This document shows positions 59,501 to 64,000 of a DNA stretch of 64,000 nt, one piece after another. Each line of letters opens with the position of its first letter. Position 1 is the stretch's first letter. Position numbers: made by a program. Origin of the DNA: Escherichia coli (GTDB lineage Bacteria; Pseudomonadota; Gammaproteobacteria; Enterobacterales; Enterobacteriaceae); NCBI RefSeq assembly GCF_024298765.1, contig NZ_CP101210.1. The stretch is one strand, 5' to 3'.

Positions 59501-62500
59501 ACAGACCTGGTCGGTGATAAGTGCTGGCGGACAATGCCGGGTGGAAAGATGTTTTCGGGTTGCCCGGGGTGATACATCCGGCCAGTATATTGCGTTAAAA
59601 ACAGTTGCATTGTCTCTGGGGTTACCGGTTGTGACCGGTATTACCCATCGCCCGGTACAGCGCTGTACATTGATTACAGCTCAGTGAACAGCGCTGTTGT
59701 GCAGTCAACGAGGTTTTCTGTCTTTTCGTCGGTCATTCAGCATCATTAAACGGGTCTCTGCCTCTTTCTGTTCCTGTGGTGTCACTTCCCCGCACGGCTG
59801 ACCGTTCAGGTTGTAACGGGCGCCACCTGCTATTAACGCACGGTAATAGCACGGAGACTGCACATAAGACGCCACTGCTGCATGTAATGTACCAGCGCCA
59901 AACGCCAGTTCTCGGATGGCGATATCCTGTATCAGGTCGTCAGGTATCCCCACTTTAAGTGGTTTTGTTTTTTTCCCGGTTGAATGACTCAGGCCAGAGT
60001 TCCACAAGACGAATAATGCGCTTACGGTTTTTGCTCTGGCGTTTTGTCATGTCGCCACGGTGTTTTATCAGCAGGTTTCTGTTTATCGTTCAACTGTGGT
60101 ATCTGGTCACCGGCCTTCATTTTGTATGCTGTGTCCGTTTTATTCTGCAGCGGCGTTGCCGGTGATTTACTGAAAATACCCTGCGGTTTACGGTTAATGG
60201 TCAGAGTTACCATCAATTTTGTTACCTCGCGCTGTCAATGGAAGTAGTACCTCATCCGATATCTGAAAATGTTTTCCGGTGGATGTTACAGCGAATTTCA
60301 TGTAAGACATGTTGTTGTCGGTATTGTTCAGTACTGTGCGTTGTGAGCGTATTCGTTATCAGACAGAGGGGCAGGGAACAAACGTCAGAGGTTAAGGATA
60401 TCCGGGAACAAATGGCGTAAACGGACATCTCAGTGCCTGAGAAACAGTACAGGTCAGGCCATCATGGCCTGCAAACAGAGCCCTGGCGACCCCGTGGCCG
60501 AAAACGAAACAATAACCCGCGCGCAGTGCGAGGAATCCGGATGTGAAGCAATCAGCAGGTAATATTAATGGCAGGACCAGCAGGTTCTTTAAACAAACGA
60601 ACATGCTGTAATTGATATTTTGCTTATTGTATTTTCTTTTTAGTTATTAAATTAATTTATTTACGAAAAATTTTCTGCAGATACAGGATGGGAATTCAGG
60701 GTGTCATCACGCCTTATGATGACACCCTTCCCCTGGTTGTGGAAAACCGAAGGATATATCAGGTTCAGCAACAAAATCAGTGAGCTGAAAGATACCAGTC
60801 CCCCAGCTTCAGCAGCTTTCACGTAAACATAAACAGGGCTCAATGAATATCTGATTGCTCCAGTTACCTTCTTTAATTCGTTCCAGCAAAACATTTCCTG
60901 CTTCCAGACCAATTTTCCTGTGAGGAACGGCCATTGTTGTTAATGATGGTTGGCAAACTTTGCTGACGTCACTGTCACCAAATCCTACTACGGCGAGCTC
61001 GTCTGGAACTTTGATCCGTCTTCGTTGACATTCATAGAGAACACCGCAGGCTAACTCATCTGACACACATACCAGGGCATCCAGTTCCGGCCATGCGAGC
61101 AAAAATTCCGGTAGTTGTGATGCTCCGGTGGAAAAAACAGGTGGCAGAGCAGCGTTAATAACACGGTTGGGAGACATATGATGGCGTAACATAGCTTTAT
61201 ACCATCCCTGTAAATGCTGCTGAAAGATCCACTGTTCCTGGTTAGCGCATAGCAAACCGATATTCTGATAACCACGTTGTACCAGCATATCCGTCAGCTC
61301 GAACATTGCTGCAACATTATCAATACCAATGTTGATATCTATCGGATCAGTACGAATGGCACCGATTTCTATAACAGGAATCGAGGCATTTTTGAGCAAG
61401 TGACGCACGGTACTATTATGCTCAACACTAAGCAAAATTGCTGCAGCGATATTAGAAGCCAGCAGGGTTTCCAGCAGTTTTTCTTCTTGTTCCAGACGAT
61501 GGCGTGACTCAGCCAGGATTATTTGATACCCCGCTGGTTGTAGCACATGTTGCAGCCCGGCAAACATTTCCGTGCATCCCGCTTCAGCCAGGTTTGGCAC
61601 GACCATTGCGATCGTGTGTGAAGATGCCGATGCCAGTGCGCTTGCAGTGAGGTTGGGCATATACCCTAATTCATTAACTGCGGCTTCAATCTTCTCCCTC
61701 AATTTATCTGAAACTTGTTCGGGAGTGCGTAACGCTCTGGATACAGTCATTGTGCCAACTCCCGCGAGTTGCGCGACATCAGCAATAGTGACTTTACCTG
61801 TACTACGACGTTTTCGGGTTATTGCCATACAAAATCCTGCTCAGCGACTACATATGGAGATCTTTTATTACTTATCATCAACGGCTTCCTGCACTGCCAG
61901 TAGCAGAGTATACCTCTTAATATCTGCCATAAGTCTGGATTTAATCAGTGAAATCTATTTTGATAGCGCTATCACAAATTCGAACAATACCTCCTGATAG
62001 CGCTATCTTTGTGATATTGATCGCAGATATACCGTCGTTACTTGAATACATTCTGGTCATATAAATAAGAAATTAGGGGGTGGGAGTGCTTAATATCTGG
62101 CTTTCTGATTCAACAATCGCATTACGAAAGAATGCCGCAACCTGGCAGCAGGCATTAGATATCTGTGCCAGACCGTTACTGGATGCAGAGATAATTACGA
62201 CGGATTATCTCAGTGCGATAAAGACACAACATGAAAAACTGGGGCCTTATTATGTCCTGGCACCCGGGCTGGCCATGCCGCATGCCCGACCAGAAGAAGG
62301 GGCAAAAGGATTAGGTTTATCATTATTAAAACTTGAAGAAGGTGTCAGTTTTCATACAGAGGAATTTGATCCTGTAGATGTTATCATTTTACTTGCCGCA
62401 CCAGACAAACACAGTCATATCGAAATGATATCTGCACTGGCTGAGTTATTCTCCAGCGAAAAAGATTTACATGAATTGCATCAGGCTCGCAATGTGGAGG

Positions 62501-64000
62501 AAATAAAAAAGATAATTTCACGGTTCTGATTACATTATAAATTCAGTCTTTTCACAACATTGCGCCGTTGCGTGATGGGACTTCTTCAACTTAAAATGGT
62601 GAATATAATGAAAATTATGGCTATTTGTGGCTCAGGGCTTGGTAGTAGTTTTATGGTCGAAATGAATATTAAAAAAGTTCTGAAAAAAATGGATATAGAG
62701 GCGGAAGTGGAACATTCCGATCTCTCATCAGCAACGCCAGGGGCTGCCGATTTATTTGTGATGGCCAAAGATATTGCTGCCAGTGCCAGCGTACCGGAAA
62801 GTCAGTTGGTGGTTATCAACAACATCATTGATATTAATGAACTCGAAACGCAACTGCGTAACTGGTTAGCAAAACAATAACCTTAATTGAAGCGAGGTGG
62901 ATATGTTTATCCTTGAAACGCTGAATTTTGTTGTTGATATACTTAAAGTGCCCGCGATACTGGTCGGCTTGATTGCCTTAATTGGTCTGGTTGCCCAGAA
63001 AAAATCTTTTTCAGATGTTGTTAAAGGTACAATTAAAACTATTCTCGGCTTTATTGTACTGGGCGGTGGTGCCACTGTTTTGGTTGGTTCGTTAAATCCT
63101 CTTGGGAGTATGTTTGAACATGCCTTTAATATTCAGGGCATCATTCCGAATAATGAGGCTATTGTTTCTATTGCGCTGGAAAAATATGGCGCATCGACGG
63201 CCCTTATTATGGCATTTGGTATGGTGGCGAATATTATTGTTGCCCGCTTTACCCGCCTTAAATATATCTTCCTGACCGGACACCACACATTTTACATGGC
63301 CTGCATGATTGGTGTGATTCTGACAGTGGCTGGTTTTGAAGGTATATCACTGGTCTTTACCGGTTCTCTTATTCTGGGACTTGTGATGGCATTTTTCCCG
63401 GCATTAGCACAACGCTATATGAAGCGTATTACGGGGAATGATGACATTGCTTTTGGTCACTTTGGCACTCTGGGATATGTACTTTCTGGCTGGATTGGCA
63501 GCGTGTGCGGTAAAGGTTCCCGCTCCACCGAAGAGATGAATTTGCCCAAAAATCTGAGCTTCCTGCGCGACAGTTCCATCTCTATTTCTCTTACGATGAT
63601 GGTGATTTATCTGATCATGGCGATCAGTGCTGGTCGTGAGTTCGTTGAAAGCCAGTTCAGTGGTGGTCAAAACTACCTTGTCTACGCCATCATAATGGCC
63701 ATCACCTTCGCTGCTGGTGTATTTATTATTCTGCAAGGCGTGCGTTTAATCCTTGCTGAAATAGTTCCGGCATTTACCGGGTTTTCAGAAAAGCTGGTGC
63801 CGAATGCCCGTCCGGCCCTCGATTGCCCGGTTGTGTATCCGTATGCGCCAAACGCAGTGTTAGTTGGTTTCTTGTTTAGCTTTTTTGGCGGTCTGGTAGG
63901 GCTATTTTTGTTGGGACAGATGAAACTGGTGTTGATTCTTCCGGGTGTCGTTCCTCACTTTTTTACCGGGGCGGCTGCTGGCGTATTTGGTAACGCTACG

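Follow-up and report, generated by a model that had tools for sequence, protein, structure and literature searches.

The LacI-regulated PTS cluster at the right-hand end of the 64-kb window (the whole stretch of E. coli DNA analyzed here) is quite probably an internal cargo cassette of a ~87-kb selC-associated pathogenicity island of the ExPEC/APEC type, an analogue of PAI I5155, in which it forms one functional six-gene unit. The unit consists of a LacI-family regulator gene divergent from genes for EIIA, EIIB, EIIC and the two halves of a split transketolase (TktN and TktC), and the cassette spans window-equivalent positions 60805-66065, about 5.3 kb. This result corrects a mis-set island boundary, a correction of small practical importance.

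Position in the selC island and occurrence in E. coli

FDAARGOS_1286 matches the window at 100% identity, and in that genome the island spans the DNA between yicL (window ~9.7 kb) and an integrase with tRNA-Sec (selC), ~32 kb beyond the right-hand end of the window. The part outside the window contains the split transketolase, IS remnants, a YadA-like adhesin, an RpiR/PTS/nanE unit, TonB-dependent receptors, an autotransporter, the integrase and selC; a tRNA scan of the 64-kb window itself found no tRNA gene. An earlier, sequence-only reading had set the right-hand island boundary at 60603, which is contradicted by the continuation of the island in this identical genome. With its tRNA gene and integrase, mobile elements, absence from K-12 and strain-variable presence, the region shows the features of a tRNA-associated genomic island.

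At 60603, a seam within the island joins a repeated backbone module to the cargo cassette. To its left lies a second copy of the island-backbone module (59143-60603), which is 86% identical to 32053-33459 and consists of a frameshifted YfjJ-like ORF and a ProQ/FinO-family pseudogene, both annotated as frameshifted in RefSeq. The homology of this repeat had been predicted to end at 60602, within one base of the measured position. To the right of the seam, a spacer between backbone and cassette (60604-60808, GC 36.9%) accompanies the cluster in every E. coli carrier and includes a terminator-like hairpin on the minus strand (60783-60808), just past the LacI stop codon. Many genomes share the backbone module and then diverge. 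The same backbone-to-cassette junction is found in BEN2908 and 2009C-3133, so that the suggested start of a separate island does not hold either, and the module is located at leuX in BEN2908 and at pheV in FORC_082. Base composition was also misjudged in the earlier reading, according to which AT-rich island DNA stops at 60602, whereas the GC content is 43.8% in the cluster region on the right, 48.4% in the island to the left and 50.4% in the core flank.

It is very improbable that 60603 is the right end of the island, with the PTS cluster being chromosomal or part of a separate adjoining island. The repeat homology does stop there and many genomes with the fec-pgt segment diverge at this very position, as such a boundary would predict. 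However, nothing but IS remnants and accessory genes separates this point from the integrase and tRNA-Sec ~32 kb further on, the junction is kept in islands at other tRNA genes, the cluster region is more AT-rich than the left-hand DNA, and the cluster is missing from 97.5% of genomes.

Among 5,426 complete E. coli genomes, 133 (~2.5%) carry the cluster, all at ≥99% identity; IS1 deletions were seen in H103 and H104. The proposal of strain-specific accessory metabolism is upheld by this count, which does not fit a core cluster present in most E. coli genomes, and the cluster is indeed missing from K-12. The E. coli islands with the cluster sit at selC, leuX, pheV or pheU, and the minority of strains with such an island are chiefly extraintestinal ones of avian and human origin. 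The cluster is an ordinary accessory sugar-uptake operon that is already annotated and has been noted before in PAI I5155. Membership of AGI-3, the selC island of BEN2908, was considered and rejected, because BEN2908 carries the cluster in its leuX island.

Gene content and divergent regulatory region

The genes had been identified as those of a LacI-type regulator and of EIIA, EIIB and EIIC proteins of the UlaABC/SgaT family, and Pfam and NCBIfam matches agree. The regulator gene (60809-61828, minus strand) encodes 339 aa with matches to LacI, Peripla_BP_1 and Peripla_BP_3 (PF00356, PF00532 and PF13377), that is, a LacI helix-turn-helix and a periplasmic-binding-protein-like effector domain. 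In NCBIfam its top matches, GntR and IdnR, stay under their cut-offs, and it belongs to the GntR/IdnR-like branch of the family. On the plus strand, EIIA (62086-62529; 147 aa) matches PTS_EIIA_2 (PF00359) with 118.7 bits and has a GTG start codon that lines up with the Salmonella ATG in the alignment, and EIIB (62608-62880; 90 aa) matches PTS_IIB (PF02302) with 62 bits. The histidine motif MPHARPEEG of EIIA and the N-terminal cysteine motif CGSGLGSS of EIIB are kept in the Salmonella and vpe proteins; the two are predicted to be separate phosphotransfer partners with a phosphorylatable His and Cys, respectively. EIIC (plus strand, starting at 62903 and running past 64000) matches EIIC-GAT (PF03611) with 510.5 bits. 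It is truncated by the window end, with 366 of 462 codons inside and the gene end at window-equivalent 64291, and the full-length protein (462 aa) scores 989.5 bits against NCBIfam NF009549 (cut-off 890), which places it among the permeases of the L-ascorbate (SgaT/UlaA) family PTS, TC 4.A.7.

Past the window end, TktN (window-equivalent 64288-65118; PF00456) and TktC (65111-66064; PF02779 and PF02780) follow, and the stop and start codons of EIIC, TktN and TktC overlap. TktN carries GDGELNEG...VDWN, the GDG...N motif of a ThDP-binding domain. The two proteins have the predicted domain composition of a split two-subunit transketolase, with the ThDP-binding domain on TktN and the pyrimidine-binding and C-terminal domains on TktC. 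An Rfam scan of 58500-64000 at E-values up to 1 gave no match.

The divergent regulatory region (61829-62085) contains two candidate operators and a promoter-like site. Candidate operator O1 (61961-61974) is a perfect 14-bp palindrome, TGATAGCGCTATCA, that overlaps the predicted -35 hexamer, and O2 (61995-62008), TGATAGCGCTATCT, is located just 3' of the predicted -10 hexamer. Their centers are 34 bp apart, and O2 lies 78 bp upstream of the EIIA start codon. The sigma-70-like site itself, TTGATA-17-AACAAT (61960-61988, plus strand), is a weak match in which 9 of 12 positions agree, and shuffled sequence contains sites of this kind at least as often. The operator palindrome occurs at two sites in the 64-kb window against 0.18 expected, and in an alignment of the four E. 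coli, Salmonella, Serratia and vpe loci O1 does not vary. In a scan that demanded both sites, 118 of 120 species-level matches had the O1/O2 pair upstream of a LacI/L-Asc PTS cluster, and the two palindromes were 20-21 nt apart in 118 of the 120 loci. One further scan match, in which similar palindromes lie at a sugar-ABC-transporter locus of high GC content, was taken as an unrelated LacI-type operator and set aside. As palindromes with a central CG near a predicted promoter that are kept across genera, the two sites have the makeup of putative LacI/GalR-type operators, and they are likely the operators of the regulator. This paired 14-bp candidate operator, Enterobacterales-wide and common to the virulence-associated vpe locus, offers a handle for regulator-binding and inducer screens.

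Proposed function and regulation

PTS and split-transketolase genes are strictly inherited together, which leaves fewer plausible substrates: among loci with enough sequence 3' of EIIC, TktN and TktC come after it in each of the 33 orthologous loci and in none of 14 vpe-type loci. We infer repression, co-transcription, the direction of carbon flow and the substrate as follows. When no inducer is present, the regulator would occupy both 14-bp palindromes, which lie on or beside the operon promoter, and repress the operon; expression would follow in the presence of the sugar or sugar phosphate. The PTS would take up the substrate and phosphorylate it in a PEP-dependent manner, and the dedicated transketolase would bring the sugar phosphate straight into the pentose-phosphate/glycolytic pool. 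The substrate may be a ketose whose phosphate is a transketolase donor, e.g., a ketopentose such as xylulose; a ketose would be the most economical choice, since the six-gene unit contains no gene for a kinase, isomerase, lactonase or dehydrogenase. The GntR/IdnR-like regulator and the L-ascorbate-family permease could, however, point equally to an anionic sugar acid.

A two-step route of uptake with phosphorylation followed by ketol transfer, serving xylulose, ribulose, sedoheptulose or erythrulose and governed by a PagR-type regulator that would also cross-regulate vpe by way of their identical operator sequence, is proposed only tentatively and with a low probability. If true, the ketose would be new as a nutrient of E. 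coli and Salmonella, and its availability would be tied to fitness traits of ExPEC and APEC.

Given the weak promoter match, repression can be proposed over activation only from the position of the operators. The Salmonella counterpart of the regulator at the same position, Q8ZND1_SALTY, is presumably STM2345/PagR, and the Salmonella unit is presumably STM2340-STM2345 by LT2 numbering, i.e., the tktC/pagR locus; we infer these STM numbers, and with them the tie to tktC/pagR, from the LT2 numbering, gene order and the UniRef identifier Q8ZND1_SALTY. STM2345 is described as PagR, a LacI-family regulator reported to activate SPI-2 genes (PMC12413039, PMC7808427), and by analogy this reported activation may speak against repression here.

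The same reports bear on another explanation, namely that the main role of the locus is regulatory, with the LacI protein controlling distant virulence or fitness genes, possibly vpe, and with the PTS and transketolase acting as sensory input. Beyond PagR, a helix-turn-helix and operator palindromes common to vpe would fit this explanation, as would the presence of two or three such loci in some genomes. We nevertheless consider it clearly unlikely, as no further operator is found in the 64-kb window, the paired operator stands only at its own PTS cluster (118 of 120 species-level matches, both sites required), and the SPI-2 targets of PagR are a feature of Salmonella that is missing from E. 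coli.

Comparison with known systems

The six-gene order is identical in Salmonella and Serratia. The Salmonella unit has the same genes, order, orientation and paired candidate operators as the E. coli cassette, and protein identities between the two are 88% for LacI, 73% for IIA, 94% for IIB, 92% for IIC, 89% for TktN and 86% for TktC. From the LacI stop (~60805-60808) to the TktC stop, the cassette is homologous to loci on the chromosomes of E. albertii, E. whittamii and Salmonella. In Salmonella, E. albertii, Citrobacter and Enterobacter, the chromosomal unit is flanked by yfcD on one side and yfcC-pta-ackA on the other, and in the E. whittamii and Klebsiella loci the yfcD side alone is visible. 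In K-12 this ancestral yfcD/yfcC site is empty (32 bp), and the E. coli cassette, collinear with the unit of this locus, is positioned instead in tRNA-linked islands. The Salmonella unit is thus a species-wide chromosomal locus, whereas that of E. coli is island cargo in 2.5% of genomes. The closest DNA found is that of E. whittamii, at 93.7% identity; a recent transfer from Salmonella was rejected, because DNA identity to its unit is only ~76%. The E. coli cluster is a copy of the yfcD/yfcC-locus operon that was reintroduced horizontally.

The "ascorbate PTS" annotation can be reassigned to the orthologue group in which it belongs, that of the enterobacterial yfcD/yfcC-locus operon, which E. 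coli lacks at the ancestral site and a minority of strains carry as island copies at four tRNA genes. Salmonella is described as having three transketolases including tktC, reported as an active third one (Shaw 2018, in PMC12651746). The tkt1 gene of APEC O1 was rejected as a counterpart, being a single full-length gene (1,998 bp) that resides on another island, of 16 kb (PMC12928451).

The vpe locus is an ExPEC carbohydrate-permease locus reported to contribute to urovirulence and gut colonization, located in PAI I AL862-type islands and adjoining deoK (Martinez-Jehanne 2012, in PMC6455142, PMC5382810). That the present cluster is vpe itself has practically no probability, in spite of considerable resemblance. 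Both loci have a divergent LacI gene followed by IIA, IIB and IIC, the palindromes of their paired candidate operators are identical, the helix-turn-helix of their regulators is nearly so, and both are borne on related mosaic islands near an RpiR/PTS/nanE unit. However, protein identity is just 41-63% (regulator 43%, EIIA 44%, EIIB 41%, EIIC 63%), the two EIICs have different NCBIfam models as top match, and vpe has deoK as a neighbor, which the cluster does not, and lacks the transketolase genes (found in 0 of 14 vpe-type loci), on which grounds it was ruled out that the two are one locus. The vpe-type EIIC is also about ten times commoner, with ~1,300 genomes against 133 for the cluster. The cluster and vpe are paralogues.

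With K-12 UlaABC, the cluster has in common the EIIC family (EIIC-GAT, TC 4.A.7) and the IIA and IIB domain types. The ula system differs in gene order, in its DeoR-type regulator UlaR and in the linked ulaG, ulaD, ulaE and ulaF; neither ulaG, ulaD/E/F nor UlaR was found in the unit in E. coli, Salmonella or Serratia. The unit might be a second uptake system for L-ascorbate or an analogue, in which the core UlaG/D/E/F enzymes would lead to xylulose-5-phosphate and the transketolase would add downstream capacity, though we regard this as doubtful. In its favor, EIIC passes the cut-off of the NCBIfam model "PTS ascorbate transporter subunit IIC", the pneumococcal ula2 genes (IIB, IIC, TktN and TktC) are up 2-3 fold with ascorbate (PMC4324149), and a transketolase gene ends the pathway in the pneumococcal ascorbate operon (PMC3302838). 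The family name, however, is given by homology, and EIIA and EIIB fall short of the UlaC and UlaB equivalogs (113 vs 187 bits and 28 vs 138 bits, respectively), EIIA being under the CmtB equivalog cut-off as well. The order IIA-IIB-IIC and the LacI-type regulator are unlike ula, no linked lactonase, decarboxylase or epimerase was found in the 33 complete orthologous loci, which were screened with six reference proteins, and core ulaA is too divergent for DNA-level detection.

By gene content, the ketose-uptake operon proposed here can further be likened to ula2/SP2127-SP2131 of S. pneumoniae, where L-ascorbate-family IIB and IIC genes are followed by two transketolase subunit genes (PMC4324149, PMC3302838). 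The pneumococcal operon differs in its PRD-containing activator, the lack of a separate EIIA and its Gram-positive host. A ketopentose substrate has been proposed for this analogous operon, and pneumococcal pentose tests gave no phenotype (PMC3302838).

As for the island as a whole, PAI I5155 (GI-12) of APEC IMT5155 is located beside a tRNA-Phe gene and cadC and carries aatA, ireA, fec and pgt (PMC4232414). Likened by gene content, it has in common with the present island ireA, fecIRABCDE, pgtABCP, an autotransporter, and PTS and transketolase-like genes (PMC4232414), but PAI I5155 is reported at tRNA-Phe/cadC whereas the present island is inserted at selC.

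Gene content and distribution of the cluster

The open reading frames, the family scans and the annotation in RefSeq give a concordant picture of the genes at the right end of the window, namely a LacI-family regulator on the minus strand (60809-61828) and, on the plus strand, EIIA with a GTG start (62086-62529), EIIB (62608-62880) and an EIIC of the L-ascorbate family that begins at 62903. These genes are real and had been rightly recognised by the sequence-only reading. EIIC is truncated by the window end; the whole gene has 462 codons and would end at window-equivalent 64291, positions past 64000 being mapped via E. 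coli FDAARGOS_1286, which matches the final 25 kb of the window (39001-64000) at 100% identity. The stop codon of IIC overlaps the start codon of TktN, and that of TktN overlaps the start codon of TktC, the two being split transketolase subunits. Given that the cluster is annotated in RefSeq and noted in the literature, it is already known.

The proposal that these genes represent accessory metabolism was borne out, as 133 of 5,426 complete E. coli genomes contain the 3.4-kb region, every time on the chromosome and with at least 99% identity; poultry was the source of about half the sampled rows of this search. No divergent allele was found among the 5,426 genomes, which points to a single recent introduction into E. 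coli. In some genomes the LacI and PTS genes have been removed by an IS1 element and a TktC gene fragment alone remains. This is the case in strains PSJ-14 and Eco_23-2667 (H103 and H104), where IS1 bridges the ProQ backbone to this fragment, an arrangement suggestive of cluster decay through IS activity.

A low-stringency DNA search also retrieved an EIIC of about 65% identity from about 1,300 further genomes, some with two to three matching places. In O104:H4 this EIIC is part of the vpe locus, which adjoins deoK (PMC6455142, PMC5382810). The LacI/IIA-IIB-IIC architecture is common to vpe and this cluster, but protein identity is only 43% for LacI, 44% for IIA, 41% for IIB and 63% for IIC, and the two are paralogues.

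An orthologous unit in other enterobacteria

The nearest EIIC proteins are those of Salmonella (92%); next come Serratia, Rahnella and others. Salmonella and Serratia share an identical six-gene order, with LacI divergent and then IIA, IIB, IIC, TktN and TktC, and the E. coli proteins share 88, 73, 94, 92, 89 and 86% identity, respectively, with those of Salmonella. DNA homology is bounded by the stop codons of LacI and TktC, which defines a 5.3-kb cassette (window-equivalent 60805-66065). At the DNA level, the copy on the island shares 93.7% identity with E. whittamii, 85.7% with E. albertii and ~76% with Salmonella.

The unit sits between yfcD and yfcC-pta-ackA in Salmonella, E. albertii, Citrobacter and Enterobacter, while only the yfcD side is visible in the E. 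whittamii and Klebsiella loci. The yfcC-yfcD gap of K-12 MG1655 (L135, record 2418601-2418634) is only 32 bp, an empty site at precisely the position that the six-gene unit occupies in Salmonella, E. albertii and other enterobacteria; it therefore appears that the unit was lost from E. coli proper and regained on islands by a minority of strains. Based on LT2 numbering and the gene order from ackA and pta, the Salmonella unit is probably STM2340/2341 (TktC) to STM2345. Its LacI-family protein is UniRef Q8ZND1_SALTY. STM2345 is PagR, a LacI-family regulator reported as an activator of SPI-2 genes (PMC12413039, PMC7808427), and TktC is cited as a third transketolase of Salmonella (Shaw 2018, via PMC12651746).

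Island extent and the internal seam

According to coordinate mapping on FDAARGOS_1286, the window starts in the core genes uhpC/uhpT and continues to yicL, directly past which the island starts (~9.7 kb). Past EIIC lie two transketolase-subunit genes, IS remnants, a YadA-like adhesin and an RpiR/PTS/nanE unit, and farther along a phytase-like gene, ugpB, TonB-dependent receptors and an autotransporter. The island is ~87 kb long and reaches window-equivalent ~96.5 kb, where it ends at tRNA-Sec (selC) and an integrase; a tRNA scan of the window found no tRNA genes. The cluster module also occurs in the leuX island of BEN2908 and the pheV island of FORC_082.

The right-hand island boundary placed at 60602 is thus wrong, and 60603 is a seam inside the island, where backbone meets cargo. 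The seam itself is real to within one base, since a second copy of a ProQ/FinO and YfjJ-type backbone module (59143-60603), 86% identical to 32053-33459, loses its homology at 60603. Nor does AT-rich DNA end there: GC content is 43.8% in the cluster region and 36.9% in the spacer (60603-60808), versus 48.4% in the island to the left; the core flank has 50.4%. Both module copies lie within one island, the second with frameshifted genes, which suggests assembly from at least two CP4-like elements or an internal duplication.

Other cargo includes an H-NS-family paralogue (33999-34433) just past the first module copy, and an hlyE-annotated gene (hemolysin E; 36899-37783) with an IS1 element and a recombinase remnant either side, at a position different from the usual chromosomal hlyE site. 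On the core side of selC, outside the window, FDAARGOS_1286 carries between yicH and yicI (L007:21581-28524) a BglG-type antiterminator, fructose-type PTS IIA/IIB/IIC, two aldolases, a ROK-family protein and an isomerase, a gene set similar to the frz operon of ExPEC. Further island cargo comprises ireA (24307-26355), a complete fecIRABCDE (39023-46567) and the phosphoglycerate transport and sensing system pgtP and pgtCBA (52808-59031), the same cargo set as reported for PAI I5155 of APEC IMT5155, which adjoins a tRNA-Phe gene and cadC (PMC4232414).

Regulation and functional coupling

The divergent region between LacI and EIIA (257 bp) contains two copies of a 14-bp palindrome, the candidate operators O1 (TGATAGCGCTATCA, 61961-61974) and O2 (TGATAGCGCTATCT, 61995-62008); these are the motif's two sites in 64 kb, with 0.18 expected by chance. 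In alignment, both are invariant across E. coli, Salmonella, Serratia and vpe, unlike the flanking DNA. A paired-motif scan of one genome per species gave at least 120 matches, and 118 of the 120 listed fall in the gap separating a divergent LacI gene from a PTS of the L-ascorbate family; 89 belong to this orthologue type, 26 to the vpe type and three to a third type. A weak sigma-70-like match (61960-61988) would make O1 overlap the -35 hexamer and place O2 at ~+1, suggesting that the regulator may repress the operon. Three similar palindromes (TGATAGCGCTATCA, TGGTAGCGCTATCA and TGGTAGCGCTACCA) were also seen upstream of a sugar ABC transporter in a high-GC, probably actinobacterial locus (L100:3987-4110), where they are probably an unrelated LacI-type operator of convergent sequence. 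The same paired palindromes occur at the vpe locus of O104:H4 (L004:7930-8199), whose regulator is nearly identical to this one in the helix-turn-helix, so genomes with both systems could conceivably show cross-regulation.

Of the loci that extend at least 2 kb past EIIC, all 33 of the orthologous type carry TktN and TktC and none of the 14 of the vpe type does, vpe being without transketolase genes. Given this strict linkage, and with no other catabolic enzyme genes linked to the unit, the simplest model would be that the PTS imports and phosphorylates a sugar, yielding a phosphate on which transketolase can act directly. EIIA and EIIB fall below the UlaC and UlaB equivalog cut-offs in the family scans, and no ula enzyme genes are linked to the unit. 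The annotated "ascorbate" denotes a family and not a demonstrated substrate. For an analogous pneumococcal operon a phenotype was not found and a ketopentose was proposed as the substrate (PMC3302838), and ascorbate induces that operon 2-3 fold (PMC4324149).
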